From Escherichia phage MN01, in sequence record MT129652.1: 64,000 nt of DNA. One strand, 5' to 3'. The notes beneath the pieces were generated by a model. That model searched no databases, was not told where the DNA came from, and was given only the letters and a program-made list of their open reading frames with translations. The number at the start of each line of letters is the position of its first letter. Within the stretch, counting starts at the first letter, position 1. Of the stretch, positions 7,815-23,740 are shown piece by piece. Made by a program: the position numbers and the translations under genes.

Positions 7815-8563
7815 TTTTTCAAGTCCTTCTCAACTAGTGATAAAGCAATGCCTCGTTCAATAGGAATCATATGCATGATACTATCCAGCGAATATTGATT
7901 CTTTACCAGCAAGTGGTTAATTTGGTAAAATACAAAGACTTCATCCGGGTTAAGGATAAGTTTAAAGACGTCAAGGAGGTCAGTGTATTCGGTTTTGTGT
8001 TTTTCACAACAGCCATATGTAAATGGAAGATAAACCGAATGCATTTTCTTAAGGAGCTCTTCGAGGCTCTCTATATCAATTGCATCGATAACTTGCATCT
8101 TTGTTTCTTCGGGGAGGTCTTCCCAATTGTATTTTTGTTCCAAGTCTTCGACGGTCTGAATGGTATTCAAGACAAGCTCTGACTTATCTTTATATTCCAC
8201 TTCAGGAAACTTAAATTGTATTTTTATCCCTGCAGTTTCCATTGTTGGATTTACTAATGGACCCTGATTCATGTTAAACAAAGTCTGCTTTGTCTTTTTA
8301 CATTTTTGACATTCAAACGCTACCGGGACTTTTGTCTTACCGATAGAGGAAGTGAATACCTTCAGGAATATGTAAGGCCTCCATGCTTTTGGATACTCTC
8401 CAAAATAATCTTCCAACAGTTCGTCTAATAATTGTTTTTGTTCTTCGACGGGTTTGTTGTTCATGTCGTTTCGCACAAGCAGTAAATCACGGTAATCAGC
8501 GACTGTAAACGGTTTGAAACGATGAACTCCGTCTGGCATTTCACATCTTACGATATTGGCCAT
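7811..8563 (-). CDS. 51: baseplate hub assembly catalyst gp51
   Basis: 250 aa (T4 gp51 249 aa); synteny; ATGA overlap with gp27. Confidence 0.8.
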
Positions 8564-8587
8564 AGAATCCCCTTTTATCTTTATTGA

Positions 8588-8599
8588 TATTTATAAATA
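8588..8599. promoter_or_regulatory. divergent overlapping late promoters (TATAAATA on both strands)
   Basis: Plus strand TATAAATA at 8592-8599 upstream of gp26; minus strand TATAAATA (plus-strand TATTTATA at 8588-8595) upstream of gp51. Confidence 0.7.
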
Positions 8600-8616
8600 C
8601 AGTAAAGGAGCAAATT

Positions 8617-9240
8617 ATGACTTATGAATTTATTGTCCAAATTAAAAATAAAACTATAAATTGTAGGGCTTTTACCTTGCGCGAATACAAAGATTTGCTT
8701 CAGGCAAAATTAGAAAAGCGTATGGAACCTGCAATAATTGAACTGCTTAATAAATGCACTGATGCTAAAGGATTGAATAAACAGGAAGCTGAACTGCTTC
8801 TTATTAATCTCTGGGCAAATAGTCTCGGAGCTGTTAACGTCGAGCATACATGGGTATGTGAGTGTGGAAAGGAACAAGATATTCCGGTAACGATTAGTCG
8901 CGCGAGCATCGTGGATGAGACTGAAGTTATTCGTGATTTCGGGTCGTTTAAAATTAAATTCCGTTATCCCGGACTGTTTGAAGACAGTGATAAAGGTAAA
9001 ATGATTGCTTGTTGTATCGAATATATTATCACGGAAGGCGGCGAGCGCATCGTTGTTGATGACTTAAATGAGGCCGAAATCGAGGACCTGTACAACGCAA
9101 TTACCCTCGATGATATAAATGCACTAACGGAAGAACTTCTCAAGCCACAGGTCCAAATGGCTATTCCTATCTCTTGCGAGTGTGGAGCACATTCTGTCCA
9201 TGTAATTAAGGGGCTTAAAGAATTCTTTAAGTTTATGTAA
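8617..9240 (+). CDS. 26: baseplate hub subunit gp26
   Basis: 207 aa from ATG at 8617, downstream of late promoter and AAAGGAG RBS; T4 gp26 is 208 aa; synteny. Confidence 0.8.
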   Translation: MTYEFIVQIKNKTINCRAFTLREYKDLLQAKLEKRMEPAIIELLNKCTDAKGLNKQEAELLLINLWANSLGAVNVEHTWVCECGKEQDIPVTISRASIVDETEVIRDFGSFKIKFRYPGLFEDSDKGKMIACCIEYIITEGGERIVVDDLNEAEIEDLYNAITLDDINALTEELLKPQVQMAIPISCECGAHSVHVIKGLKEFFKFM

Positions 9241-9630
9241 ATGAATATAAACAAAATGTATAGCGATGTATCTCCCGACTTATCTACAAGTTGGGATAAA
9301 GACGTTGCTAAAGTAACCGGTGCAAGGTCTGTTAAGAACAGTCTTCTGGGAATAATCACCACAAGAAAAGGGTCACGGCCTTTTATGCCTGAATTTGGAT
9401 GTGATATAAGTAATCAGCTTTTTGAGAATATCACTCCATTAATCACAGATACCATTAAACGCAACATCGTCTCCGCGGTGCGGAACTTCGAACCACGGAT
9501 AAGCAATCTACAGGTTGCAGTTGTCCCTATGTATGATGATAACTCCATTATCGTAACGGTTCAGTTTAGCATTGTTGATGACCCTGATACCCTCGAACAA
9601 ATCAGGATTCAGTTAAGTCAAAACGGTTAA
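9241..9630 (+). CDS. 25: baseplate wedge protein gp25
   Basis: 129 aa (T4 gp25 132 aa); resemblance to T4 gp25; synteny. Confidence 0.85.
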   Translation: MNINKMYSDVSPDLSTSWDKDVAKVTGARSVKNSLLGIITTRKGSRPFMPEFGCDISNQLFENITPLITDTIKRNIVSAVRNFEPRISNLQVAVVPMYDDNSIIVTVQFSIVDDPDTLEQIRIQLSQNG

Positions 9631-9667
9631 TGCTTTAATTTTATGGCTGTATAATGGTTCTAGACCC
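9631..9667 (+). promoter_or_regulatory. middle (MotA-dependent) promoter module for uvsY
   Basis: MotA-box-like TGCTTTA at 9631-9637, 12 nt spacer, TATAAT at 9650-9655, followed by conserved GGTTCTAGACCC. Confidence 0.65.
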
Positions 9668-9683
9668 TTACATTGGATACATT

Positions 9684-10118
9684 ATGAAAACAGAGATTGA
9701 ATATAAGTTAGAAGTCTTTCAGGATGAGTTAGATGCAGATTTAAAAATTGATGGTACGCAACTTCAATATGAAACACAAAACAACGTTTTGTTGCATAGC
9801 AAATGGTTGAGATTGTATACCAACTGCAAGAAAGAAATAATGCGTCTTGAGATTCAGAAGAAAACTGCACTGAAAAAACGACTAGACCATTATACGGGAA
9901 GGGGTGACCCAGGGGAAGAGGTATGCATGGATGTATACGAGAAGTCAGAATTGAAAACAGTCATGGCCGCAGATTCAAGCGTACTGAAGATTGATACTTC
10001 AATTCAGTATTGGGCACTACTCCAGGACTTCTGTAGCGCTGCATTAGATGGTGTTAAGTCACGAAGTTTCGCACTTAAACATATGTTAGAAATAAGACAA
10101 TTTGAGGCAGGCAAGTAA
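9684..10118 (+). CDS. uvsY: recombination mediator UvsY
   Basis: Close match to T4 UvsY as recalled (KLQYE..NNV, SKWL, GRGD, QYW, FCS.ALD, KSR.FA.KH); start at MKTEIEY. Confidence 0.9.
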   Translation: MKTEIEYKLEVFQDELDADLKIDGTQLQYETQNNVLLHSKWLRLYTNCKKEIMRLEIQKKTALKKRLDHYTGRGDPGEEVCMDVYEKSELKTVMAADSSVLKIDTSIQYWALLQDFCSAALDGVKSRSFALKHMLEIRQFEAGK

Positions 10119-10351
10119 TGCGATATTCTATCGACGATGCGTTTAACCAAGACGAAGAGTTCGAAGAAGAAATTAAGTATATGATGAAGGAATGGAAATT
10201 GAATCGTGCAGATATTCGTATCTGCGCCGACCACCCTTGTGGTGAAGATGTTATCTATGTTAAAGGTAAATTTGCAGGATACATCGATGATGCATTCTAT
10301 TCTCACAATATGGGTATAGATACCGGTATGAGATACTTTAAGGAAAATTAA
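10118..10351 (+). CDS. hypothetical protein (uvsY.-1 position)
   Basis: 77 aa ORF, ATGA overlap with uvsY stop. Confidence 0.55.
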   Translation: MRYSIDDAFNQDEEFEEEIKYMMKEWKLNRADIRICADHPCGEDVIYVKGKFAGYIDDAFYSHNMGIDTGMRYFKEN

Positions 10352-10462
10352 ATGAAAAATATTAGTAAGATTCTCGACGAGATGGTTATCTCTGCAAACC
10401 GACTAACTGAAATTGTTAATGAGATGAAAGCTCGTGCTGCTATTATGAAGAGCACTAAATAG
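10352..10462 (+). CDS. very small hypothetical ORF (36 aa)
   Basis: ATG at 10352 directly after previous stop; read by eye; not in the supplied ORF track. Confidence 0.3.
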   Translation: MKNISKILDEMVISANRLTEIVNEMKARAAIMKSTK

Positions 10463-10489
10463 ATATGTAAGTTTAACTGAGGAGACAAT

Positions 10490-10792
10490 CATGTCAGATA
10501 AGATTTGTGTTGTCTGTAAAACTCCAATCGATTCTGCATTGGTTGTGGATACAGACCAAGGTCCGGTGCATCCGGGCGCCTGTTATAATTATGTTCAGAG
10601 TTTGCCAGTTACGGAAAATACAGAAGAGCAACTGAACGAGACTCAACTTTTAATTTAGCTAGTGTTGTTAACCATTTTTGGTTTTGCCCCTTCCTTTTGG
10701 TCGGGGCCTTTTTATTTAGAAATCTTCGTCTTCATCATCGTCCATATCCTCAAGCTCGGCGCGTTTACCGGCAAGAGCATCACGAACACTGA
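10490..10792 (+). CDS. hypothetical Cys-rich small protein (CxxC...C; uvsY.-2 position)
   Basis: ATG at 10490 after GAGGAG RBS; frame read by eye, ORF not in the supplied track; reads through the hairpin at 10686-10717. Confidence 0.35.
10686..10717. terminator. bidirectional terminator hairpin
   Basis: GCCCC...GGGGC stem followed by T-run; A-run on the other side. Confidence 0.5.
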
Positions 10793-10943
10793 TATCATCG
10801 GAATCTTTCAGTTCAGCTTCTTTGCTGCGTTTCTTATAATAGCCTTCCAACTCCTTCAGACCGTCCATGGTCTGGCAGGAACCAATCTTAGCCATAAAGC
10901 CTTCAATTGATGCTTCGTACATAATTTCTTCGAAGGATTTCAT
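10716..10943 (-). CDS. uvsW.1: UvsW.1-like small acidic protein
   Basis: 75 aa, acidic C-terminus, directly downstream of uvsW as in T4. Confidence 0.65.
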   Translation of the reverse strand: MKSFEEIMYEASIEGFMAKIGSCQTMDGLKELEGYYKKRSKEAELKDSDDISVRDALAGKRAELEDMDDDEDEDF

Positions 10944-12442
10944 TATATTTCCACCTGTTTAATTACATAATTGAATTTTTCGTCTGCATACCGCTGAATA
11001 CGTTCTAATGCATGTTTAAGCGCAAAGTTAATATGAACATATTTCTTTTTAGCGTTTGCTGATTTGGGTTTGACCCCCATATCATCCACAATGTCCCACA
11101 CGTTTGCGGTCGATTTAGATTCATGTTTTCGAAGCACACGGCCAATTGTCTGGAGTACAATTACCTTTGACTTGACCGGGTGAGCGAAAATAATATGATG
11201 GAGGTTTTTAACGGAAATACCCGTCGAGAATACACCATATGAAGCTACAACAATAATTCCTTTTCCATTCTCTGCCATGACCTTCAGAGCATTACGGGTT
11301 TCGGTATCAACTTCCCCGGAAACATAATACACTTTCTCATGACCAGCTTCCTTAATCATTTCAAACATCGATTTGCCGTGCTCGATATTCTTAAACATCA
11401 AAAAGACGTTTTCATCTTTTTTAGAAAGCTTGAGGGCAAGGTTTGTCACCCATTTATTTCGGCGTGTAGCTTTTGTAATTACCTTGATTTCATCCTGATA
11501 AGTTTTGCCTTTCATTTTAACGGTGAATTCATCAGGGTAACGAAGGAAAATACTATTTATTTTAAGGTCAGTAACCTGACCGTCTTCCATCAATTTAGAT
11601 GTTGACACTGGTTTAAAGATATCACCAAACAGACCCATATATTGCATAAGGTTGGCTTTGCCATCACGGAGTGAACCTGACAAACCAAATTTAAACATGC
11701 AATTCGTAAGGCCTTCGATAACCGTCGAAATCGATTTACCGGTCGCCATATGACATTCGTCATTCATAAACTGGCCAAACTGTTCAAACCATTCTTTAGG
11801 TTGTTTTACAGCCGTCTGATAAGTCGATACATAAATCATCGCATCAGAATCACGTTTAGTCCCAGAACGAATACCCAAACAAGCTTCACGAGGGAACAGT
11901 CGATAATCAACAAAGTCATTAATCATCTGGTCAACAAGCGCGGTTGTAGGAACAAGGATAAGAACCTTGCCTTCATAGTTCTCGAGGTAATATCGCGCCA
12001 GAAGCGCCTGGATGAGGCTTTTACCTGCAGACGTAGGTAAGTTCAAAATCTTTCTTCTGTTGACCAGGCCATCATATACGGCGTCAGATTGATACCAATG
12101 GGGCGTTATCTTAGTATTGCCTGAATAGATTTCTTTTGACTCAACCCATTTGTTGAATTCTTCGCGAGAGATTTCTTCTTTCTCGGTGATTTGTGGGTCA
12201 ATCCAGAATGAATAGCCAAACTGGTCAGCGAACTTTTTAATTTGATTAACCAAACCGTATGGTAATTTACGATTGTAATCCAGGAGGCGGATTCGTCCGT
12301 CCCAAACTCCCTGCTTGAATTTTGGATTGAAGCGATAGTTTTCAGCTTCGAAGCTGAAGTAATCACGGAGTTCATAGAAGATTCCATCTTCACATTCAAC
12401 ATGCACGTGACTAAAATTTAGAAAGTTGATTTTAATATCCAT
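10943..12442 (-). CDS. uvsW: UvsW DNA/RNA helicase
   Basis: SF2 helicase motifs (Walker A TSAGKS, DECH box) and resemblance to T4 UvsW; start at internal Met downstream of late promoter. Confidence 0.85.
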   Translation of the reverse strand: MDIKINFLNFSHVHVECEDGIFYELRDYFSFEAENYRFNPKFKQGVWDGRIRLLDYNRKLPYGLVNQIKKFADQFGYSFWIDPQITEKEEISREEFNKWVESKEIYSGNTKITPHWYQSDAVYDGLVNRRKILNLPTSAGKSLIQALLARYYLENYEGKVLILVPTTALVDQMINDFVDYRLFPREACLGIRSGTKRDSDAMIYVSTYQTAVKQPKEWFEQFGQFMNDECHMATGKSISTVIEGLTNCMFKFGLSGSLRDGKANLMQYMGLFGDIFKPVSTSKLMEDGQVTDLKINSIFLRYPDEFTVKMKGKTYQDEIKVITKATRRNKWVTNLALKLSKKDENVFLMFKNIEHGKSMFEMIKEAGHEKVYYVSGEVDTETRNALKVMAENGKGIIVVASYGVFSTGISVKNLHHIIFAHPVKSKVIVLQTIGRVLRKHESKSTANVWDIVDDMGVKPKSANAKKKYVHINFALKHALERIQRYADEKFNYVIKQVEI

Positions 12443-12470
12443 GATGATTCCAAGGTAATAAATATATCTA

Positions 12471-12478
12471 TATTTATA
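12471..12478 (-). promoter_or_regulatory. late promoter (TATAAATA on minus strand) for uvsW
   Basis: Plus-strand TATTTATA about 30 nt upstream of uvsW start. Confidence 0.6.
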
Positions 12479-12496
12479 CACTAACCGAGGTTCATC

Positions 12497-13162
12497 ATGA
12501 TTGACAAGAACTACATTGAGGAAATTCGTGTCCTCGAGAAAAAAGAAGCCAAAGAAAAATTAGCCGAATATGCAGCATCACTTGGTGTTGATGTTAAGAA
12601 AACAAAAACCTTCGATAATATGTTGGTTGACCTGGAAGCAGGACTTAAAGCATTTGCTGACATGCCTATGCCTGATGATAATGAAGGCCTAAGCATCACT
12701 GACCTTATCGATGCTGACGATGAATTGTCAGGTGCTAAATTTGATGGTGATGAGTCAGCTAAAGAAGAAGCCAAACTATTATTTGATGCTCCAACCGAAG
12801 CAAAGGTTGAAGTTGTTGAAATCGAAGAACCAGTTGTTTTGGTCAAAGAAGATGTTCCTTTTGTCGAAGAAAAGTTCGAAGCGGCTGTTGCTAAGGTTAT
12901 CGAATCTGAAAAACCTGTATTTGCTCTGCCAAAAAACTTTAGTCCAAATCTTATGCTTATTGGCAAGAACCCTGGATTCTGCACTGTTCCATGGTGGATT
13001 TATCAGTGGATTTCTGAGACTCCGGATTGGAAAGAACGTCCGACCAGCTTCCAACATCCTACTGCACACCAAACACTATTCAGCTTGATTTATTACATCA
13101 ATCGTAATGGGTCTGTTCTAATACGAGAAACTCGTAACTCATCTTTTGTCACTTTAAAATAA
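12497..13162 (+). CDS. inh: Inh-like protein (inhibitor of prohead protease), tentative
   Basis: 221 aa, position between uvsW and hoc as in T4; no strong sequence recall. Confidence 0.45.
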   Translation: MIDKNYIEEIRVLEKKEAKEKLAEYAASLGVDVKKTKTFDNMLVDLEAGLKAFADMPMPDDNEGLSITDLIDADDELSGAKFDGDESAKEEAKLLFDAPTEAKVEVVEIEEPVVLVKEDVPFVEEKFEAAVAKVIESEKPVFALPKNFSPNLMLIGKNPGFCTVPWWIYQWISETPDWKERPTSFQHPTAHQTLFSLIYYINRNGSVLIRETRNSSFVTLK

Positions 13163-13171
13163 GGGTTTATT

Positions 13172-14590
13172 ATGGCTTATACCGTAGCTATTGCTCCTTT
13201 GGCGGCCACGGCCGTTATTGGAGCAACAACCAATTTCACTGCAACCGGCTCTGGTGCTGCAGCTGAAGGTGTTGAATCATTTGTATGGACCGTTAATGGC
13301 GTTCCTCAATCTTCTGTGACTGCAGCAATGGCTTATGTCGCTGTTGGTCCAGCAGGCAGTAAGACTATTAAAGTTGTTGCAACCACCACTCCGGCAGAAG
13401 GTGAACCAGAAACTGCTGAGGCTGAGACGACTTTAACTATCCAGAATAAAACAATGCCTGCTATTACATTGACTTTAGACCCTGCCTCTGTTACTAAAGA
13501 AGTGGGACAATCTCAAGTTGTTACTGCTAACGTATCAGGTGCCCCTGCTGGTGCTACAATTGCTTATGTTTGGAAACGTAATACAACTGTAATTTCAGGT
13601 CAAACCGGTAAAACTATTACCGTAACCGAAGCGGCGGCAGCGAATTACACTTTGAACTGTGAAGTTACTGTTTCTGCACCCGATTATAATAATGGCACCG
13701 CAACTAAAGGAGCTGCGGTATCTTTTGTTAAGAAAACTATGTCGGGTGTTTCTGTTACTTTAACACCAGCCTCAATTAGTACAGAGAAAGACTCGTCTGC
13801 ACAGTTTAAAGCGGATGTAGTTGGCGCTCCTTCCGGCGTAAATGCAACTTATTCTTGGAAGAAAAATGGTTCTATTATTCCGGGCGAAAGCAGCAATATT
13901 CTTGCCGTCGATACAGCTACAGTAGGTTCTTACTCTATTGAAGTTTCGGTAGTCCTAACAGGTGCGGATTATAACGATTTAACCGTTACCAAAACAGGAA
14001 GTGTAACAATTACTAAAAAGACTATGACAGGTGTTTCTGTTACTTTAGCGCCTGCTTCTATTACCGTCTCTGAAGAAATCCCAGCTTCTTTTAAAGCCAC
14101 AGTAGCTGGCGCGCCTGCTGGTGCTACTTTTGCCTATTCTTGGAAGAAAGATGGTTCACCAGTCGCTGGTACCACAGATACTTTTGTAGTCGATACAAGT
14201 GCCGAAGGTTCACAGGTTATTGAAGTTTCTGTTGTTGTTTCGGCTACCAACTATAATCCTGTGACTGTCAAAAAATCTGGTAATGTAACAATTACGCCTA
14301 AAGTTGCTCCTGAACCAGAGGGCGAACTGCCTTATGTTCATCCGTTACCAGTTCGTAATTCAGCTTATATCTGGTGTGGTTGGTGGGTTATGGATGAAAT
14401 CCAGAAAATGACTCTTGAAGGCAAAGACTGGAAAACCGATGACCCTGATAGTGATTTCTATCTCCATCGTTATACCCTTCAAAAAATGGTAGCCGATTAT
14501 CCAGAGGTTGATGTACAAGAATCTCGTAACGGTAGAATTATTCATAGAACTGCTTTAGACATTGGAATTATTTACGATTACGTTTATTAA
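13172..14590 (+). CDS. hoc: Hoc-like outer capsid decoration protein with tandem Ig-like domains
   Basis: Repeated domains of about 95 aa ending in a YSWKK/YVWKR-type motif; C-terminal domain shared with the next gene; T4 hoc position. Confidence 0.75.
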   Translation: MAYTVAIAPLAATAVIGATTNFTATGSGAAAEGVESFVWTVNGVPQSSVTAAMAYVAVGPAGSKTIKVVATTTPAEGEPETAEAETTLTIQNKTMPAITLTLDPASVTKEVGQSQVVTANVSGAPAGATIAYVWKRNTTVISGQTGKTITVTEAAAANYTLNCEVTVSAPDYNNGTATKGAAVSFVKKTMSGVSVTLTPASISTEKDSSAQFKADVVGAPSGVNATYSWKKNGSIIPGESSNILAVDTATVGSYSIEVSVVLTGADYNDLTVTKTGSVTITKKTMTGVSVTLAPASITVSEEIPASFKATVAGAPAGATFAYSWKKDGSPVAGTTDTFVVDTSAEGSQVIEVSVVVSATNYNPVTVKKSGNVTITPKVAPEPEGELPYVHPLPVRNSAYIWCGWWVMDEIQKMTLEGKDWKTDDPDSDFYLHRYTLQKMVADYPEVDVQESRNGRIIHRTALDIGIIYDYVY

Positions 14591-14594
14591 TAAC

Positions 14595-14608
14595 GGGCCG
14601 CAAGGCCC
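14595..14608 (+). terminator. hairpin after hoc (weak terminator)
   Basis: GGGCC-GCAA-GGCCC hairpin without a clear T-run. Confidence 0.35.
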
Positions 14609-14622
14609 TATTCGGAGGATTA

Positions 14623-17457
14623 ATGGCACAAACTATACGTCTTATTTCGGCTAATGTATCACCTGCCCCAGAAAAATACATATTGAACAAGATGTACAAC
14701 TGCGAGATTTCTTTAGAATTTGTATCACAAATAGACAAAATGGCGTTTTATAATAATAATATAGTAGACGCGGATGGAAACAAACTTACTACCGGTGGTA
14801 TAAATCTTACACCACGAGAACCTAATTCGCCATTTAAAATTAGTGGTATCTCATTTATAGTATATAAAAAGAAAGATATGTCTTATTTTATAGAATTCCG
14901 AGATATCGACGGAACTATACATAAAGTACCTCTTGTTAATATTACTGCAGACCAAATAGAAGATGGAAACTCGACACCAAAAATATTGACCTGTGCTAAT
15001 AATTCTTCAGGTGAAGAGTATCTTTATACTTTAAGTCCATACAGAATGGATGCGGGCGCTTTTAACAATATGTTTGTTATAGATTCGGTAGATTTCTTTG
15101 AATATTCTAATAAAGAAACACCGTTTCACACTGAACTTTTACCAAGTGTAGGTACTTCCTACATAATACCTAAAACCGATAGAAGGACTGCGGTATATGC
15201 TGTAGTTAATATATCTGACCGTGACACAGGTAAAAAACTTATAAATTCATTTTATTCGTTTTCGGAAATCCACCCAAATAAAACAGGGCCCACAACCCTT
15301 CTTTCAAGTCTCAAATATTTAGTTGATTCTACAGGCACAGAATTATCGATATTTCCTAAAATATCAGTCACACCACCTATTCCAAATTTAATTTTTAACC
15401 ACAATTTATACACACCTATACAAAGAGGAGTTTCTTTAGCCCCTAATAATAGATTAGACCAAACTATAAACATGTATATAGATGGTTCTACAACTGCTGC
15501 TGGAGCTGTAGTTGCGTCTGATAATGCTTCATTTCTTACTAGACCTGCTAGCACTAGCACTACAATATCAATGGCTAATCTAAAAAATGGGACCAAACTA
15601 TTTTTAAAAGATTATGACCAAAAGGTAATAAAAGAATTAGATTTTGTTGATACAGAATATATCATATTACCTATATCAAATCTTAAAGTAAAATCAATGA
15701 AACCTATGGATTTTACTAAGCCTGTTTGGGAATATGAATTTTCTCCTATATTACCCGGTATAAGTGAAACGGAACCTTATGTTGTCTTCGAAAGCTTTGT
15801 AAAAGAGACAATGAAAAAATTAGGTGACCGTTTTTATGCTAGTGATTTAAAAGGTGCTATAGTTCCTAATTCAGATTCCATAGATAATATGTTATCTAGT
15901 AATACTGCTGGTATAGAATATTATTGGCTGCATATATGGTATCCTAATTTAGGAAAAATGTACTTATTAAGAAACTCTAATGGAGATGGTCCTGGTGTAT
16001 ATCCTCTAATAAAAACGGGCAAAGAACAAGTAACCGTTTCTAAAACCGGTGAAGTTATCCATGGTAAAAATATAGAACTCGCTGCAACTGAATTTGGATT
16101 TTCAGAAATAAACGCAGGAAAACGCACATTCCAATGGTACAAGGACGGGGTTGAATTACCAGGCCAAACTACAAGGGCCCTTTTAATTACAAATTTAAAA
16201 GGCGAAGACAGCGGCGATTATAGTGTTAAAGTAACAGCTACACCTAGTCACTCGTACGCTGAAGATTCTATTATGGAATTTAGTTCTACTCCATTTAACA
16301 TCAATGTTGATACCACAAGGACCATAACAGCCGAATTGACGTGCACCCCAATGCCTATAGTAATGGGCCAGCCTTTTACTCTTTCTGGTAAAATAAGCGG
16401 TGGGTATGGAACTACTATAGAATATGTCAGGCTGATTAAAAACTCGGTAATCTTGGAAGACTATCCATTAGACTCTATGACAACTAGCACTGTTATCCCT
16501 AATGCAACTCTTACTTCAAGTGGAATTTATACTCTTGCCGTAAGTTATTTTGATAACGGAGTAAAACGTCTTGCTCTGTCTGAACCTGTTAAAGCATTTT
16601 TTGCTGATAGCAAACCATTAAATCTAACCTGTGTATTGGCAGGTCCTGATATGGCTAATGAGGGCGATGATGTTTTATTCAATGCAAATGTTGCGGTGAG
16701 TTCGGACGCCAGTTTGACACCTGTATATACAATGCATTGGTATAAAGACGATATACCGGTATCAGATTCATCTCCTGACAATTTGAGTCTAAGTATAACC
16801 AATGCTCATTATCCTGAAGATGAAGGGGTGTATTATTGTATAGTTTCGGCGCATGTTGAAGGATATGAACCTGCTACTATTGAGAGTAATAAAATTGATT
16901 TAACCATACTTACTGACATAAGATTGGTAGCAAGACTTTATTCCGACAACGCTATAATCAATAAAGGAGACACCACAATTATTAAAATAGGGTTCCAAGC
17001 AGATAGACCTGTTAACCCTACATGGAAATGGCACCACAAAGATGGTACTCTGTTACAAGAAAACGGAACCGAATTAATGGTTTCTCCAACATCAACTACT
17101 ACCTATTATGCTATTGCATATCCTGGGTACGGCGAAGGAATACAAAAACCTACAATGACTAATGAATTCACTATAGAAGTTATCGAGCCATCAGTAGACG
17201 CTGATTGTGATATCTACATTCATCCATTGATGCCTGGACGTCAAGGTGGCTTTTTATGGGTGGGGTGGTGGGTTATTGATGAAATCAACCAGGCTATAAA
17301 AGATGGATTTGATTGGAAAGCAGACCCTACTAATAGTAGATTTAAGTACCCGTGTACTATAAAGGCTATTGTTAGAGCCATGAATGACTTTGGGGGAGTT
17401 GAAGCTCAAGAATCCAGAAATGGATACATTCTTAAAGACGACTATTTCAACAGGTAA
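14623..17457 (+). CDS. second, large Hoc-like protein (944 aa) with Ig-like domains and Hoc-type C-terminal domain
   Basis: Ig I-set-like motifs (WYKDG...DSGDYSV, WYKDD...EGVYYC); C-terminal segment (W.GWWV.DEI....DWK.D...ESRNG) parallels the C-terminus of the upstream hoc-like gene. Confidence 0.7.
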   Translation: MAQTIRLISANVSPAPEKYILNKMYNCEISLEFVSQIDKMAFYNNNIVDADGNKLTTGGINLTPREPNSPFKISGISFIVYKKKDMSYFIEFRDIDGTIHKVPLVNITADQIEDGNSTPKILTCANNSSGEEYLYTLSPYRMDAGAFNNMFVIDSVDFFEYSNKETPFHTELLPSVGTSYIIPKTDRRTAVYAVVNISDRDTGKKLINSFYSFSEIHPNKTGPTTLLSSLKYLVDSTGTELSIFPKISVTPPIPNLIFNHNLYTPIQRGVSLAPNNRLDQTINMYIDGSTTAAGAVVASDNASFLTRPASTSTTISMANLKNGTKLFLKDYDQKVIKELDFVDTEYIILPISNLKVKSMKPMDFTKPVWEYEFSPILPGISETEPYVVFESFVKETMKKLGDRFYASDLKGAIVPNSDSIDNMLSSNTAGIEYYWLHIWYPNLGKMYLLRNSNGDGPGVYPLIKTGKEQVTVSKTGEVIHGKNIELAATEFGFSEINAGKRTFQWYKDGVELPGQTTRALLITNLKGEDSGDYSVKVTATPSHSYAEDSIMEFSSTPFNINVDTTRTITAELTCTPMPIVMGQPFTLSGKISGGYGTTIEYVRLIKNSVILEDYPLDSMTTSTVIPNATLTSSGIYTLAVSYFDNGVKRLALSEPVKAFFADSKPLNLTCVLAGPDMANEGDDVLFNANVAVSSDASLTPVYTMHWYKDDIPVSDSSPDNLSLSITNAHYPEDEGVYYCIVSAHVEGYEPATIESNKIDLTILTDIRLVARLYSDNAIINKGDTTIIKIGFQADRPVNPTWKWHHKDGTLLQENGTELMVSPTSTTTYYAIAYPGYGEGIQKPTMTNEFTIEVIEPSVDADCDIYIHPLMPGRQGGFLWVGWWVIDEINQAIKDGFDWKADPTNSRFKYPCTIKAIVRAMNDFGGVEAQESRNGYILKDDYFNR

Positions 17458-17462
17458 TAACT

Positions 17463-17486
17463 AAAATGGGCCGCAAGGCCCATTTT
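17463..17486 (+). terminator. rho-independent terminator
   Basis: AAAATGGGCCGCAAGGCCCATTTT hairpin with flanking A/T runs. Confidence 0.6.
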
Positions 17487-17554
17487 GCATTAAAGTACAA
17501 AATTCCTGTTTACAAGTTAAAAATTCTATGTTAAGATAGCTTCACTAACTCAAC

Positions 17555-17758
17555 ATGAGAATCATTATGGATAAGGTTAAAGTACATTTTCTGCATGAAT
17601 CTGGTATGACATTTATTGAAATCGCCAAGGTACTAGGCGGGACTGCTAAAGAGATGGCAAAAGCCTGGGTTGATGTAGAACAAGCCAAAGCTAAATTTAA
17701 AGCGAAAGAAAAGATTGTTTATCGTAAACGTTTGAATAACAAAAAGGTGAAGAAATGA
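17555..17758 (+). CDS. small basic protein, possibly DNA-binding (helix-turn-helix-like segment)
   Basis: 67 aa ORF; TFIEIAKVLGGTAKEMAKAW segment; Lys-rich tail. Confidence 0.45.
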   Translation: MRIIMDKVKVHFLHESGMTFIEIAKVLGGTAKEMAKAWVDVEQAKAKFKAKEKIVYRKRLNNKKVKK

Positions 17759-18148: not shown

Positions 18149-19156
18149 ATGTTCAAGAAATACAACAGCCTTGAAAATCACTATAACAACAAGTTCATTG
18201 AAAAGATTCGCCTGCAAGGCTTCACCAACGGTGAATGGGTAGCACGTGAAAAGATTCATGGCACCAACTTTTCATTAATCATTGAACAAAACAATGTGAC
18301 ATGTGCGAAACGCACTGGGCCTATCCTGCCTGCAGAAGATTTCTATGGTTATGAAATTGTACTAAAGAACTATGCTGATTCTATTAAATCTGTGCAGAAA
18401 CTTTTGCAGGATATCAATTACCAGGCGTATCAGATTTATGGTGAGTTTGCCGGGGCAGGTATCCAGAAGAATGTGGATTACGGTGATAAAGATTTTTATG
18501 TCTTTGATATCCGCGTTACTAAAGAAGATGGTTTTGAATCCGTCCTGACTGACACTTTGATGGAAGCTTTCTGTATTATCCATAAGTTTAAGGTTGCGCC
18601 GCGCCTAGCCACGGGTAGCTTTGAAGACTTGATTAAGCTCCCTAATGACCTGGATTCCGTTGTTCCTGATTACAATTTTACAGTGGATAATGCGGGTTTG
18701 ACTACAGCAAATACCACTGATTTTGACGCGAAGGTTGAAGGTAAAGTATTCACTGCTGAAGGATTTGTATTAAAACCTGATGTTCCTGCATGGTTACCCA
18801 ACGGCGAGCGTGTAGCTATTAAATGTAAGAACTCTAAATTCAGCGAAAAGAAAAAGTCTGATAAACCTATTAAGGCTGCTGTTGTGTTGTCCCAGGAAGA
18901 CCTGGATATTTTATGGAAGTTCACTGATTATGTGACTGTTAACCGTATTAATAATGTTATCAGTAAGATTGGTGAAGTAACACCTAAGGATTTTGGAAAG
19001 GTAATGGGGCTAACGGTCCAGGATATTCTGGAAGAAGCTGGTCGTGAAGGTCTTGAATTGTCCCTGACGGAAAATCCTGTTGAAGTTAAAAAGCAACTTA
19101 TTGTAAATGTAAGAGAAACATTAAGACATGTTTGGATTGCATTAATTAGTGAATAA
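18149..19156 (+). CDS. rnlB: RNA ligase 2 (RnlB)
   Basis: 335 aa (T4 Rnl2 334 aa); nucleotidyltransferase lysine motif KIHGTN; position next to gene 24. Confidence 0.85.
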
Positions 19157-19185
19157 AAAAGGGCCGCAAGGCCCTTATTCTTTTT
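19155..19185. terminator. bidirectional terminator between rnlB and gene 24
   Basis: GGGCCGCAAGGCCC hairpin with A-run upstream and T-run downstream. Confidence 0.65.
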
Positions 19186-20458
19186 CCAATGGCGGAAGTT
19201 TAACACCAAGATAAGAACTCAATTGGCTTTGGTTAGCCATCTTATCCATATCAGCACCGTCAATAATGCGAGCTTCTTTATCGTCTTTAGCAACGGTGTA
19301 AGGGTTCGCTGTCAATGCATAACGAGCTAACAGTGCAACCGTAGGCTGTAAGCTTTCAGGGTCAACAATAACCTTGAATTCCCCGACCGAGGTATCACCC
19401 TCATCATCAACTTCGCTAAGCCCTTCCGTATAAGGCGCATAATACAAAGATGCGACCGTCTGACCTTCACCCATATCAGCATTTACACCGACAATAACAT
19501 AATCACATGGACTATTCATATCAGCGTAAAGAGGTAAACCGTTCTTCAGAACGCCATAGGCCAATTCATCCTGGTCTTCCTTTTTCTCAACCCAGCCAGA
19601 AGCGGCTAAAATAGCTGCACAACGAGAAGAAGCGACTGCATATGTACCAGCAAATGAAGTCTGACGTTGAACTGCAGAATTCATTTCACACATATAATAA
19701 TACAGGGTTCGTGCGCGGTCCTGGGCGTTATCATATTTCAGGTCAGTAAGATTCAATACACCTTTTTCAGAAACACCTTGCACCTTGAAACGGGAACTGA
19801 CAGTAATAAGGGATTGCAGTACATCCTTATTAATTTCCTCTGCCATTTGAATACCGAGAATATTATCGATGAAATCCGTTGCATCGAAACCGTTTGCTTC
19901 CAGGTCTTGTGCAAGCTCGACAGTTAAAGAAGTTTTCAGTTTTCTGGATTTGACTTCGGTCTGCCATTTATCGATACGGAAACCAGCTTCAGCAATTTCA
20001 GGATGTCCTTTTTCAAATTTATCCGTGAAAGCCGCATCTGACATCATTCTTATATGACCAGCAGCAACGGCTTCAGAAATAACTTCACCCAAATCAGTTT
20101 CGAGAGTCCCGGCGAATGGTGATGCTTCCAGAACTTTGAACACAACACTTTCAAACTGGAACATATCGCCGACTGCATAAGCTTCGTCTTTGTTTGTAAA
20201 TTCTGGAATATTCTTACGCTCGAACATACCAATCTGACCTGCAAATGTTGCCCCGCCGAGATAAGTCATTTTATCATCTGGGTTCAGAACACGAACACCA
20301 TACAGCGCTGCAACAGGCTGGGTAGTTTTCTGTTCAGCCACGAGTGCTTTAAAAATTCGTTTATTCGTGGCTTGGGTATAAGAAAGCAAATTAGGACGGG
20401 CGACCTGGTTGGCCGCCGTTAATGTTGATTCGTGAATTAGTGCGTTAATCTTTTGCAT
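19175..20458 (-). CDS. 24: head vertex protein gp24 (copy A)
   Basis: 427 aa, same length as T4 gp24; gp23-like fold signature shared with the adjacent paralog. Confidence 0.8.
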   Translation of the reverse strand: MQKINALIHESTLTAANQVARPNLLSYTQATNKRIFKALVAEQKTTQPVAALYGVRVLNPDDKMTYLGGATFAGQIGMFERKNIPEFTNKDEAYAVGDMFQFESVVFKVLEASPFAGTLETDLGEVISEAVAAGHIRMMSDAAFTDKFEKGHPEIAEAGFRIDKWQTEVKSRKLKTSLTVELAQDLEANGFDATDFIDNILGIQMAEEINKDVLQSLITVSSRFKVQGVSEKGVLNLTDLKYDNAQDRARTLYYYMCEMNSAVQRQTSFAGTYAVASSRCAAILAASGWVEKKEDQDELAYGVLKNGLPLYADMNSPCDYVIVGVNADMGEGQTVASLYYAPYTEGLSEVDDEGDTSVGEFKVIVDPESLQPTVALLARYALTANPYTVAKDDKEARIIDGADMDKMANQSQLSSYLGVKLPPLEKE

Positions 20459-21739
20459 TTACGCCTCATAAATGATTGGCGGAAGTTTAACACCGAGCAG
20501 ATAAGACATATTGCTCTGACCGGCCATTAAATCCATATTGGTTGCATCGATAATACGAGCTTCTTTATCGTCTTTGGCAACGGTGTACGGGTTAGCTGAA
20601 AGTGCGTAACGAACCATCAGAGATATAGATGGCTGCAAGCTGTCTGGGTCCACAATGACCTTAAACGCGCCGACGTGCTCTTCATCATCCAAGTCCAGGC
20701 CTTCGGTATAAGGAGCATAGAAAATTGAGCCTACGACTTCGTTCCCGCCGTAATTTTCTTTAACACCAACGGTTACATAATCCAATGGACTGTTAACATC
20801 ACAGAATACAGGGAGGCCGTTAATCAAATAACCGTACGCTGTTTCGGGGAGCCATTGCTCATCTTCTGGTCTGTGTTTCAACCAACCAGAACCGGCCAAC
20901 ATAGCAGCAACACGGCTAGAGGCAACAACAAAGGTACCGGAATAAGATGTAGTTTTCTGAATTTCGGAGTTCATTTCGCAAACCAGTTCGTACAGTTTAC
21001 GTGCACCTTCCGGGGCTGCATCATATGTTAAATCGATGGTGCCATTGTCGGAAACGCCAGTTACTTTATAACGCTTGGAAACGGTAATAAGAGACTGAAG
21101 AACATCTTTGTTAATTTCATCTGCCATAATAGTGGCAAGCAGGTCTTCCAAGAAAGCAGGAGCGTTAAAACCATTTGCTTCCATATCCTGAGCAAGTTCA
21201 ACAGTTAATGCAGTTTTCAATTTACGTGTTTTAACCGGAGCATTCCATTTGTTAACCTGGAATACAGCATTGCTAATTTCAACATCACCAGCTTCGAATT
21301 TCTCGGTGTGTGCCGCATCAGGAACAAGGCGAATGGTCGATGCAATAAGACCTTCTTGCAGAACATCAGATAACACGGTTTCTGTGGTCGATGCAAATGG
21401 ATTATCAACCAGGGCTTTGTAAACGATATTTTGGTATTTTACATATTCGCCTTTAGCCACGGGCTGAGTGGCTGTAGCTAATTCTGGAATAGTTGTACGG
21501 TCTTTAGAACCGACTTCACCTCCATAAGTAGCGCCAGTCTGGAAACTGAATTCATTATCAGGAGTAAGATATTTAACACCGTACAGTGCAGCAACAGGCT
21601 GGGTAGTACGTTGTTCAGCGATGATATCGCGGTAAATCAATTTAGTCGTAGCGCGGGTCAAAGCAACAAGATTCGGGCGGCCCAAGGAGTTGCTGGTAGT
21701 AATAGTTGACTCGCGCAGTAATTTGTTAATCTTTGCCAT
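20459..21739 (-). CDS. 24: head vertex protein gp24 paralog (copy B)
   Basis: 426 aa; clearly alignable with copy A along its full length; stop abuts copy A start (TAAATG). Confidence 0.8.
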   Translation of the reverse strand: MAKINKLLRESTITTSNSLGRPNLVALTRATTKLIYRDIIAEQRTTQPVAALYGVKYLTPDNEFSFQTGATYGGEVGSKDRTTIPELATATQPVAKGEYVKYQNIVYKALVDNPFASTTETVLSDVLQEGLIASTIRLVPDAAHTEKFEAGDVEISNAVFQVNKWNAPVKTRKLKTALTVELAQDMEANGFNAPAFLEDLLATIMADEINKDVLQSLITVSKRYKVTGVSDNGTIDLTYDAAPEGARKLYELVCEMNSEIQKTTSYSGTFVVASSRVAAMLAGSGWLKHRPEDEQWLPETAYGYLINGLPVFCDVNSPLDYVTVGVKENYGGNEVVGSIFYAPYTEGLDLDDEEHVGAFKVIVDPDSLQPSISLMVRYALSANPYTVAKDDKEARIIDATNMDLMAGQSNMSYLLGVKLPPIIYEA

Positions 21740-21765
21740 TTGCGCTTTCCTTTTGTGATATACTT

Positions 21766-21773
21766 TATTTATA
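21766..21773 (-). promoter_or_regulatory. late promoter (TATAAATA on minus strand) for gene 24 copy B
   Basis: Plus-strand TATTTATA about 27 nt upstream of the start. Confidence 0.6.
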
Positions 21774-21779
21774 AAAGTT

Positions 21780-21826
21780 GTTTACAACCAGATTAAGATA
21801 AGACATAATGATTCCATACTGAGTTA
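21780..21826 (+). promoter_or_regulatory. early promoter plus conserved leader cassette
   Basis: GTTTAC -35, 18 nt spacer, CATAAT -10, then GATTCCATACTGAGTTA leader also found at 59998, 60885 and 61413. Confidence 0.6.
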
Positions 21827-21848
21827 ACAAACAAACCTGGAGTTTAAA

Positions 21849-22130
21849 ATGAACAAATCAACTTTCCTTCTGAACACCTTTAAAAAATTGGAAATTGAAG
21901 TTATTGCATTGGTCAACAAATACCCAAATGGTGTTAATGGTAATGCTCTGAACAAACTAGTTAAAAAATATGAAAACTTAGCATATGACACTGATTTCTG
22001 GTGGAATGGTAATTATTCTACTCACACTAAAGATAAAAATGGTAACTGGTTGAAACTTCAAGAAAACAATGTTAACTTCAGAGACCTCATCAAGCGCCGG
22101 GTAGAAGTTCATTTAAATGGTATGGTATGA
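21849..22130 (+). CDS. hypothetical early protein in the 23/24 intergenic slot
   Basis: 93 aa ORF with own promoter cassette and RBS; no recognisable nuclease motifs. Confidence 0.5.
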   Translation: MNKSTFLLNTFKKLEIEVIALVNKYPNGVNGNALNKLVKKYENLAYDTDFWWNGNYSTHTKDKNGNWLKLQENNVNFRDLIKRRVEVHLNGMV

Positions 22131-22137
22131 AAACAAG

Positions 22138-22166
22138 AAAGGGACCTCAAGGGTCCCTTTTTATTT
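22138..22166. terminator. bidirectional terminator
   Basis: GGGACC-TCAA-GGGTCCC hairpin with A-run and T-run. Confidence 0.65.
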
Positions 22167-22180
22167 AACTTAATCTAGGA

Positions 22181-23740
22181 TTAAATTCCTTTAACATATA
22201 CGCGACGGAAGTAACCGTTCAAGCCGAGGCTGTTAACGATATCCGGCATGCCGTTCTGAATGCGCTTGGTCGGAGCCTGAGCAGCAGGGTCAGCAAACGG
22301 GTTGATACCAATACCGTAACGGGTTTTGAAGCCCATAACCGGCTGGAAGTTTTTCGGGTCAGAGCCACGCAGCGGGGTCAGTGCAACATATGGTGCGTAG
22401 TAGATACCAGCATCCATTTCGTTAGCGCCTTTGTAACCGATGGTGAAGTAGTCTGCACGAGCATACTGGTCGATATAGACACGGTATTTGCCACCCAGAA
22501 CACCAGCGAATACAGCTTTAGTGGTGTCAACGTTGAAACCTTTACCCAGACCCTGAGCAGCATAACTTACAGAAGTATCAACAGCAGCCAGTACGTTAAC
22601 TACGTTACGGGAAGCGATGATGAAGTTACCTGCGCCACGACCGGTCTGACGAGCGATTTCAGCGGCTTCTTTATCAATCTGGAACAGTAAAGCTTTGAAG
22701 CTTTCACCAGCCCAACGAGCACCACGGATATCAATCGGGTCCTGGAAGTCAAACACACCAGCTTTAGCGCCAACGGTGTTGGTCATACCAGATTTACCAA
22801 CCTGTGCGGAGTAGTTAATCCAATCGATAACTTCGCGGTTGATTTCCAGCATAATTTCGGTAGCCAGAATACCACTCAATTCGGCATCAGCATCCATACC
22901 GTGAACAGCGCGGAGGTCCTGTGCCAGTTCGATAGAGTAGCTTGCTTTAAGCTGACGGGATTTAGCTTCGATAACTTGTTTGTCGATACGGAAGCCCATT
23001 TCGTTCCACGGGTTATCCTGGGAACCGTTAAAACCTTCTTGCAGTTCGGCGATGGAGGTAGCCATACCTTCAGCCAGTTCAGCCAGCTGACCAGCTTCCA
23101 ACAGAGCGGTAACAGCAGCATCCAGTTTAGCAGCATCGGTAGCAGCAGCATCAACAGTTACAGCTTCAACAGCCTGGAAGTGTGCGGAACCGGTTGCTTC
23201 GAAGAAGTGAGAATAAATTTTACCAACTTCCAGAACTTTACCTGCAGCCAGTGCTTCAAAAGTCTGAGCAGCGCCCTGACCAGAGAACATAGCGTTCGGA
23301 GCATACATCGGATGGAAAGCTTCTTTAGCACCAGCAGCGACAGGGTCTTTACCATAAACTGCACGCAGGGCAAATACCTGGCCAGTCGGGTTGTTCAGAG
23401 GCTGTACGCCACAAATATCAAACGCAATCAGATGCGGAATAGCACGACGAACCATACCCATAACTGCCGGCCCAATCTGAGTTACTGCACCAGAGGTCTG
23501 GCCAGCAGCGATATTGGTAGCATCATAACCATGGTCACCACCGATTTCAGCTTCGGTCAGGAAAGAACCAAATGCTTCGGAGATTTTTTCGTCACGGTAT
23601 TCAGGAGCGGTCAGAATATCTTGTTCCTGGTTTTCAAAGATTTTAGCGATGATAGCTTGTTTAGAAGCACCAACGATTTCAGGAAGAGCTTCGTTTTCCA
23701 ACAGAGCGGACCATTTTTGAACTAATGCATTCTTTTTCAT
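22181..23740 (-). CDS. 23: major capsid protein gp23
   Basis: 519 aa; near-identity to T4 gp23 over long stretches as recalled. Confidence 0.95.
   Translation of the reverse strand: MKKNALVQKWSALLENEALPEIVGASKQAIIAKIFENQEQDILTAPEYRDEKISEAFGSFLTEAEIGGDHGYDATNIAAGQTSGAVTQIGPAVMGMVRRAIPHLIAFDICGVQPLNNPTGQVFALRAVYGKDPVAAGAKEAFHPMYAPNAMFSGQGAAQTFEALAAGKVLEVGKIYSHFFEATGSAHFQAVEAVTVDAAATDAAKLDAAVTALLEAGQLAELAEGMATSIAELQEGFNGSQDNPWNEMGFRIDKQVIEAKSRQLKASYSIELAQDLRAVHGMDADAELSGILATEIMLEINREVIDWINYSAQVGKSGMTNTVGAKAGVFDFQDPIDIRGARWAGESFKALLFQIDKEAAEIARQTGRGAGNFIIASRNVVNVLAAVDTSVSYAAQGLGKGFNVDTTKAVFAGVLGGKYRVYIDQYARADYFTIGYKGANEMDAGIYYAPYVALTPLRGSDPKNFQPVMGFKTRYGIGINPFADPAAQAPTKRIQNGMPDIVNSLGLNGYFRRVYVKGI

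Follow-up and report, generated by a model that had tools for sequence, protein, structure and literature searches.

A probable long-form Hoc-family gene in a hairpin-bounded cassette of Escherichia phage MN01

Escherichia phage MN01 (sequence record MT129652.1) carries two hoc-like open reading frames (ORFs) in tandem on one strand, in a capsid-accessory cluster that T4 has in equal order with a single hoc, and this raises the question of what the second ORF encodes and how it came to stand there. The analysis covered a 64,000-nucleotide (nt) stretch of the record (hereafter, the window), in which the two ORFs are called hoc1 and hoc2. A first-pass annotation made from the sequence had both at exactly the coordinates found here, and had the second at about 2.5 times the length of the first; the measured ratio is 2.0 (944 versus 472 amino acids [aa]). 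The hoc2 product (QIN95398.1) is labeled "hypothetical protein MN01_00018" in GenBank. Here, we report that hoc2 probably encodes a functional long form of Hoc, the T4-type head-decoration protein, and that it lies in a precisely bounded cassette absent from close relatives.

The assignment to the Hoc family follows from the C-terminal domain. Hoc1, of which T4 Hoc is a straightforward orthologue, matched the solved T4 Hoc chain 5vf3_Z (phmmer, E 6e-121) and consists of four immunoglobulin (Ig)-like domains (aa 1-378; 285-nt repeats and Pfam Ig matches, in agreement with the four or so repeats seen at first pass) and a capsid-binding C-domain (aa 379-472) 85% identical to that of T4 Hoc. Hoc2 comprises an N-terminal module, four Ig-like domains, and a Hoc-type C-domain (Table 1), and PHROG 1149 ("Hoc-like head decoration") matched both halves of it. 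The C-terminal modules of the two proteins were 43% identical over 74 aa (BLASTP, E 2e-15), and the stretch coding for GWWVxDEI formed a 24-nt repeat between the genes (92% identity), bearing out the similar C-terminal module first noticed in both ORFs. Hoc2 also aligned with T4 Hoc (42% over 76 aa, E 2e-18) and with 5vf3_Z (phmmer, E 1.3e-16). From a list of 16 T4 gp23-contact or ESRNG-loop residues taken from Fokine et al. 2023 (PMC10385173), hoc2 retains 14 (Y293, H295, R300, W306, W309, W310, D313, Q354, the intact E355-S-R-N-G359, and Y360; T4 numbering), with H299G and Y304F the only changes; hoc1 likewise has 14 of 16 (exceptions, H299V and Y360R). MN01's own gp23 has the same residue as T4 at 18 of 19 positions of the docking segment (326-344), including D336 and R344. 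Both proteins are acidic like other Hocs (pI, 4.95 for Hoc2 and 4.87 for Hoc1). The proposal that the shared module is the capsid-binding region is thereby strengthened.

Upstream of the C-domain, the Ig region of hoc2 matched Pfam Ig_2 (E 1e-14) and Ig_3 (E 2e-13), with weaker V-set and I-set matches and a sub-threshold Ig_5 match at residues 501-540; the best stretches lay around residues 501-540 and 689-762. AlphaFold2 (AF2) gave beta-sandwich segments in this region, mostly at a predicted local distance difference test (pLDDT) score of 50-80, and Foldseek, whose comparison is meaningful for the Ig part of the model alone, returned multi-Ig chains, RB49 Hoc (3shs) among them. The N-terminal module had no Pfam match up to an E value of 10 in any of four homologues (a scan in which HMMER filters discard most matches above ~0.1), no NCBIfam match, and none in a PDB profile search. 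Alignment of the module with hoc2's own Ig domains by hhalign gave a probability of <1%, a weak test because the Ig2-versus-Ig4 control was not recognized either. AF2 produced no assignable fold for the module (pLDDT 30 alone and <50 in a full-length model with one homologue), and both low-confidence models were beta-rich. The description of the second ORF as a long N-terminal region without a fold match followed by Ig-like domains, of which there are four, is therefore retained.

Long Hocs of this type are extremely rare. When 1.84 billion representative proteins were scanned exhaustively with HMMER, the N-terminal module turned up only in hoc2 itself and in two others (P0002, 960 aa, and P0003, 1041 aa; each ~25% identical), and among 50,697 phage records it occurred in Salmonella phage CGG4-1 (Gelderlandvirus) only. 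IMG/VR held CGG4-1 only, JGI metagenome contigs held no relatives of the module, a word-indexed protein search returned nothing for the module or its alignment (P0002 returned only itself), and the exact hoc2 protein was not on record in the contig index. The other long-hoc members are CGG4-1 and two metagenome contigs (ERZ27245996 and SRR16526506), and all four occupy an equal genomic place. A short hoc stands upstream of the long one in CGG4-1 and ERZ27245996 (279 and 185 aa, respectively), and an inverted third Hoc-like gene and a 539-aa gene (labeled "tail fiber" in CGG4-1, and with a VR26 counterpart noted as a collagen triple-helix repeat protein) follow downstream; on SRR16526506 the long hoc comes directly after inh, with no short hoc called in the retrieved stretch. 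In that ~18-kb T4-like stretch (L008), positions 8001-14078 encode the 1041-aa long Hoc, a 111-aa ORF, and an 856-aa protein with a match to Pfam PF27114 (Phage_tail_beta).

The CGG4-1 homologue (YP_009286535.1; RefSeq label, "Hoc-like head decoration") resembles hoc2 in length (944 aa), in its site after a short hoc, in the hairpin-GGAGG-ATG junction before the gene, and in an alignment gapless over 944 aa (65% aa identity overall and 59% in the N-terminal module). It differs in lying in an ~36% GC genome, where it is compositionally at home, in its shorter upstream hoc (279 versus 472 aa in MN01), and in the inverted Hoc-like and collagen-like "tail fiber" genes downstream, neither of which is in the MN01 window. 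The ratio of nonsynonymous to synonymous divergence (dN/dS) between the two genes was 0.16 overall, 0.23 in the N-terminal module, and 0.12 in the Ig region; with the gapless alignment, this indicates that hoc2 is under purifying selection. Identity to the three homologues was 82, 77, and 50% in the C-domain and 59, 22, and 19% in the N-terminal module, and the first ~140 residues were not alignable between distant members, a gradient of the kind expected of a fixed capsid anchor with a fast-evolving distal tip.

The boundaries of the cassette were read from relatives without hoc2, in which the hoc stop codon and a hairpin run straight into the sequence that begins at window position 17482. 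The end of hoc in Dhakavirus vB_EcoM_005 reads ...TATTAATTAT-GGGCCGCAAGGCCC-ATTTTGCATTAAAG...; MN01 has these flanks, but two identical copies of GGGCCGCAAGGCCC enclose 2873 bp there. Compared with UPEC07, 2907 bp stand in MN01 where UPEC07 has 112 bp. The second hairpin is the stronger (-17.1 kcal/mol, z score of -4.05). The two hairpins are 100% identical in MN01 and differ from each other in CGG4-1, suggesting a recent event, and hoc2 was found in no other Gaprivervirus or Dhakavirus among the 50,697 phage records. The MN01 backbone is 95-96% identical to the Gaprivervirus phages UPEC07, TH22, and VR20.

Base composition and codon usage also set hoc2 apart. Its GC content of 35.7% is the lowest of any 2.8-kb stretch of the window (mean, 40.8%; standard deviation [SD], 2.1), and its first 1.44 kb (32.7%) is a window minimum as well. 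The view that the second gene is AT-rich stands in this respect, and requires qualification against its neighbor: hoc1 has a GC content of 42.8%, but most of the raw gap between the two genes is due to amino acid composition, and their GC contents at third codon positions (GC3; 0.250 for hoc2 and 0.264 for hoc1) are the two lowest among 57 ORFs. In synonymous codon usage, with amino acids controlled, hoc2 was the strongest outlier among the 57; its per-codon log-likelihood ratio for window versus CGG4-1-locus usage was -0.085, against a mean of +0.055 (SD, 0.045; minimum, -0.021) for the other 55 ORFs. Its usage fits an ~36% GC Gelderlandvirus-type genome such as CGG4-1. Acquisition by recombination, as suggested at first pass, is thus favored by the absence of hoc2 from close relatives, the duplicated hairpin at both ends, and foreign-looking synonymous codons. 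Indistinct GC and codon usage, or a shared C-terminal region that failed to align with Hoc capsid-binding domains, had been named as outcomes that would speak against the first-pass annotation; windowed GC and codon usage instead distinguished hoc2 from its flanking genes, and the C-terminal region did align.

The most likely donor of the 2.9-kb cassette would be a lower-GC T4-like phage, and the cassette probably entered a Gaprivervirus-type genome at the stem-loop that normally follows hoc and is now duplicated on either side. A role in indel formation in T4-type genomes has been proposed for PeSL (promoter-early/stem-loop) elements, mobile regulatory cassettes made up of a terminator and an early promoter (Arbiol et al. 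2010, PMC2839356; Comeau et al. 2014, PMC4122927). The MN01 site is similar in that a conserved GC stem-loop stands at the ends of the indel, an early-type sigma-70-like promoter begins 28 nt after the right-hand copy, and the surrounding region, between core genes, is variable; hairpin 2 and this putative promoter together resemble a PeSL-like terminator/early-promoter composite. The differences are that no promoter follows the left-hand stem-loop, the cargo is a late structural gene and not small early ORFs, and just three copies of the GGGCCGCAAGGCCC stem-loop were found in the 64 kb. The third exact copy (19161-19174) lies between the convergent rnlB and gp24 genes and is terminator-like on both strands.

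The post-hoc site is a hot spot: at this position VR26, in which the annotation of the hoc region cites VR7 homologues, has an inverted cassette of Hoc-like and collagen-like genes, and an enlarged post-hoc region annotated "tail fiber" was also seen for VR25 in search results. This alternative cassette, located at 5336-7735 in L003 (VR26), 10863-13349 in L001 (CGG4-1), and 10905-13382 in L005, pairs a 508-539-aa "tail fiber" gene with an inverted Hoc-like gene of ~285 aa, in whose C-domain (E)SR(N/H)G is intact; CGG4-1 thereby encodes three Hoc-type C-domains.

How hoc2 would be expressed can be outlined from the promoter-like and hairpin sequences around it. No TATAAATA (late promoter) was found on the + strand between positions 8599 and 51862, and upstream of inh AATAAATA is the only site with one mismatch. 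In T4, inh is preceded by the identical GTAATAAATATATCTATATTTATAC arrangement, within a 25-nt context common to both phages, and CGG4-1 has a perfect TATAAATA at the position equivalent to AATAAATA. Late-promoter sequences diverge from a compact region at 12456-12478 (on the - strand, TATAAATA at 12471-12478 toward uvsW; on the + strand, AATAAATA toward inh), which is nearly identical to the T4 inh upstream region. Within the 32-nt gap between hoc1 and hoc2, a hairpin of five GC pairs capped by a GCAA loop (-11.4 kcal/mol) is followed by UAUUCGG, with no U-tract, and then by GGAGG; the junction hairpin-TATTyGGAGGATTAATGGC was also seen in CGG4-1, and hairpin-GGAGG-ATG is kept in the SRR16526506 contig. 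A one-mismatch site over the hoc1 stop codon (TATTAATA) was rejected as a late promoter for hoc2 because it derives from a conserved YVY-stop coding sequence that is also present in relatives without hoc2. The first-pass view of a second gene with no promoter of its own, preceded by a weak hairpin, agrees with these data. Since the gap holds no promoter, late cotranscription of hoc2 with inh and hoc1 is likely: one transcript starting upstream of inh would read through the hairpin after hoc1 with partial attenuation, hoc2 would be translated from its own strong GGAGG site, and hairpin 2 would be the likely end of the late unit.

By homology and from published structural work on T4, the Hoc2 C-domain would dock at the center of expanded gp23 hexamers, as that of T4 Hoc does with a single monomer per hexamer, with the four Ig-like domains and then the 468-residue distal module extending outward from the capsid. 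Given this common docking position, Hoc1 and Hoc2 would compete for ~155 shared sites, and the capsid surface would be mixed, with short fibers of ~4 domains beside long fibers that bear a second, fast-evolving binding tip. The display of two decoration proteins on one capsid is thus plausible.

Several observations weigh against the reading of hoc2 as a recently acquired, capsid-docking Hoc. The divergence of hoc2 from CGG4-1 (69% nt identity; synonymous divergence [dS], ~1.7) is about equal to that of flanking core genes, and the GC3 of hoc1 is low too. The hoc2 C-domain is just 32-36% identical to canonical C-domains (36% to T4 and 32% to hoc1), carries one extra residue in the beta1-beta2 loop (HPL-M-PGR), and ends ~11 residues short of T4 Hoc, so affinity or site preference could differ; at a pLDDT of ~30, the AF2 model of the domain gives no structural check on the gp23 interface. 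In the ERZ27245996 contig, the long hoc is preceded by a TATAAATA of its own, and cotranscription is therefore no universal rule for the long-hoc family. As to origin, a recent transfer from CGG4-1 was rejected on the same 69% identity and dS of ~1.7, and a recent tandem duplication of hoc1 was rejected on the 32% identity of the C-domains and the unrelatedness of the remainder. Because hoc2 has diverged much as its flanking core genes have, ancient residence with loss elsewhere must be considered: a tandem of hoc and long hoc ancestral to Gaprivervirus and Gelderlandvirus, repeatedly deleted via the flanking hairpins, with MN01 among the few keepers. MN01 and CGG4-1 align collinearly (69% nt identity) over a region that starts at the hoc C-domain, includes the long hoc, and ends at the hairpin behind it, neighboring core genes stand at 66-74% (dS of 2.3 to saturated, versus ~1.7 for hoc2), gene order matches in CGG4-1 and the ERZ27245996 contig, and direct repeats would favor deletion. 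We nevertheless regard this history as unlikely, given the absence of hoc2 from other Gaprivervirus and Dhakavirus records, synonymous codons that have not converged on the host genome, and hairpins that are identical in MN01 but unlike in CGG4-1. What the distal module is made of is a closer call. It may consist of further divergent Ig-like or beta-sandwich domains, making hoc2 a long fiber of about nine domains like the Hoc of phage Muldoon, a possibility that we place somewhat short of even: the AF2 models are beta-rich, very long all-Ig Hocs exist, 468 aa corresponds to about five 94-aa units, and the failed Ig2-versus-Ig4 control shows that sequence tests are insensitive here, but the module found no Ig or other Pfam match in four homologues under the filtering noted above, hhalign did not relate it to hoc2's own Ig domains, and CGG4-1 is the sole phage Hoc that matches it. 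A bolder proposal, held only tentatively and with the odds against it, is that the module is a non-Ig ligand-binding or enzymatic fold displayed in up to ~155 copies per head, providing a second binding specificity independent of the tail fibers (for example, for mucus or cell-surface glycans) and traveling between T4-like genera in a stem-loop-bounded cassette, with the hoc terminator as a dedicated hot spot.

On the capsid itself, the two proteins might partition rather than compete, the divergent Hoc2 C-domain preferring other sites (such as vertex-proximal or distorted hexamers) and the proteins forming separate patterns. The 32% identity between the C-domains, the loop insertion, H299G, and the shorter C-terminal tail are compatible with this, as are the orientation preferences of T4 Hoc at vertex-proximal hexamers described in PMC10385173 and the presence of two gp24 paralogues at all three long-hoc loci with a fully retrieved capsid region (MN01, CGG4-1, and ERZ27245996; the SRR16526506 locus has one gp24 and ends shortly after it). 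With 14 of 16 contact or loop residues conserved, a gp23 docking segment essentially identical to that of T4, and two gp24 paralogues in many relatives that lack hoc2, partition appears improbable. Less probable still is that hoc2 is not in the virion at all, being instead a passenger that is not expressed or a late protein that stays soluble and serves some other role; the lack of its own promoter, the upstream hairpin, and the mere "hypothetical protein" label would fit, but the 944-codon frame is intact, with a dN/dS of 0.16 and no indel relative to a 65%-identical homologue, the GGAGG site is strong, and the capsid-contact residues are conserved.

Table 1. Features of the hoc1-hoc2 locus in window coordinates
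Feature	Coordinates	Strand	Basis or remark
AATAAATA, late-promoter-like site	12457-12464	+	1 mismatch to TATAAATA; 33 nt upstream of inh; putative function
inh (inhibitor of prohead protease)	12497-13162	+	Synteny and homologue annotation; precedes hoc as in T4
hoc1, canonical Hoc, 472 aa	13172-14590	+	T4 Hoc match, Dhakavirus hoc identity, 285-nt repeats
Hairpin copy 1, GGGCC-GCAA-GGCCC, left boundary repeat	14595-14608	+	Five GC pairs, GNRA loop, -11.4 kcal/mol
2873-bp segment absent from relatives	14609-17481	+	Equally placeable at 14595-17467
GGAGG, hoc2 ribosome-binding site	14614-14618	+	4 nt before ATG
hoc2, second Hoc-family ORF, 944 aa	14623-17457	+	
hoc2 N-terminal (capsid-distal) module, aa 1-468	14623-16026	+	Highest AT content and greatest variability within hoc2
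hoc2 Ig region, aa 469-856, four Ig-like domains	16027-17190	+	Pfam, AF2, Foldseek
hoc2 Hoc-type capsid-binding C-domain, aa 857-944, and stop	17191-17457	+	Homology to T4 Hoc and hoc1
Hairpin copy 2, right boundary repeat	17462-17487	+	14-nt core at 17468-17481; AAAAU/AUUUU extends stem to 11 bp
Sigma-70-like TTTACA-17-TAAGAT site, upstream of DUF2774 gene	17509-17537	+	Conserved in relatives; putative function
DUF2774 gene (T4 24.3-like)	17555-17758	+	Pfam
24.2-like gene		+	Between DUF2774 gene and rnlB
rnlB	18149-19156	+	
uvsW, two gp24-like vertex genes, gp23		-	

The gene order at the locus is inh, hoc1, hoc2, DUF2774, 24.2-like, rnlB, two gp24 genes, and gp23 (Table 1). By its sequence relationships, hoc1 itself looks recombinant, because its closest match is Dhakavirus hoc (91-93% nt identity), yet the backbone is Gaprivervirus. 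In the closest backbone relatives (UPEC07, 377 aa), hoc has three Ig-like domains, versus four in hoc1, and window positions 14003-14591 realign at 84% to the third Ig-like domain and C-domain of UPEC07. The 36 nt of hoc1 that include the GWWVMDEI codons (14368-14403) match the inverted Hoc-like gene of VR26 (L003, 5570-5535) at every position, and the remainder of that C-domain is ~69% identical between the two; the perfect match within so divergent a domain hints at gene conversion between Hoc C-domain modules. The gp24-like head-vertex paralogues, of which T4 has one, lie in tandem on the - strand (19175-20458 and 20459-21739; 427 and 426 aa; mutual nt identity, ~65%) and are labeled "capsid vertex protein I/II" in VR26, VR20, and CGG4-1. 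At 21750-22249, GC falls to 33% in the ~440-bp gap between gp24 and gp23, where a small + strand hypothetical ORF is annotated in relatives and where T4 has the segD homing endonuclease.

Compared with T4 Hoc (5vf3 chain Z; PMC10385173), hoc2 shares the C-domain, homologous to T4 Hoc residues 281-376, with its ESRNG loop and W-x-G-W-W-V-x-D-E motif, N-terminal Ig-like domains, an acidic pI, and a position downstream of inh in the late capsid-accessory cluster. It differs in length (944 versus 376 aa, or 2.5-fold), in having four recognizable Ig-like domains instead of three together with a 468-aa N-terminal module without detectable similarity, in its diverged and shortened C-domain, and in standing next to a canonical hoc as a second copy. 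Fokine et al. 2023 (PMC10385173) described ~650 Hoc homologues, very long Hocs included, as well as phages in which two Hoc-like proteins are encoded: Serratia phage Muldoon (1174 aa with ten Ig-like domains, and 314 aa) and Enterobacter phage PG7 (233 aa, and a 511-aa lipase fusion). These resemble hoc1 and hoc2 in that a short and a long protein sharing the Hoc capsid-binding domain occur in one genome. The long Hoc of Muldoon, however, is described as all Ig-like, and the second PG7 protein has its binding domain at the N terminus and a GDSL lipase at the C terminus, whereas the extra module of hoc2 is N-terminal and unrelated in sequence (a distinction that rests on the published descriptions and one tblastn search).

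The novelty implied at first pass was accordingly overstated. Two-Hoc phages and the idea that the Hoc C-domain functionalizes the capsid with other ligands or modules have been published (PMC10385173), and the CGG4-1 homologue already carries its RefSeq label; with the general principle of several Hocs per phage and a C-domain display anchor in print, hoc2 is an incremental case and not a new kind of system. No paper on MN01 or on the CGG4-1 long Hoc was found in the literature, and neither is listed in the supplements of PMC10385173. Not described before are the subfamily of long-form Hocs and its 468-aa distal module, the extreme scarcity of this subfamily, and the exact cassette structure with a hairpin at either end.

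T4-like phages have been proposed to adhere to mucus and surfaces by means of their Hoc fibers, which also serve as the main scaffold in T4 display vaccines. The hairpin-bounded cassette of MN01 is a clean example of how capsid-decoration genes move, and its 468-residue tip is a small, well-defined target for structure determination and ligand screening. As a natural phage in which a long Hoc is probably displayed beside a short one, MN01 would illustrate the ways in which functions of the capsid surface diversify and are exchanged.

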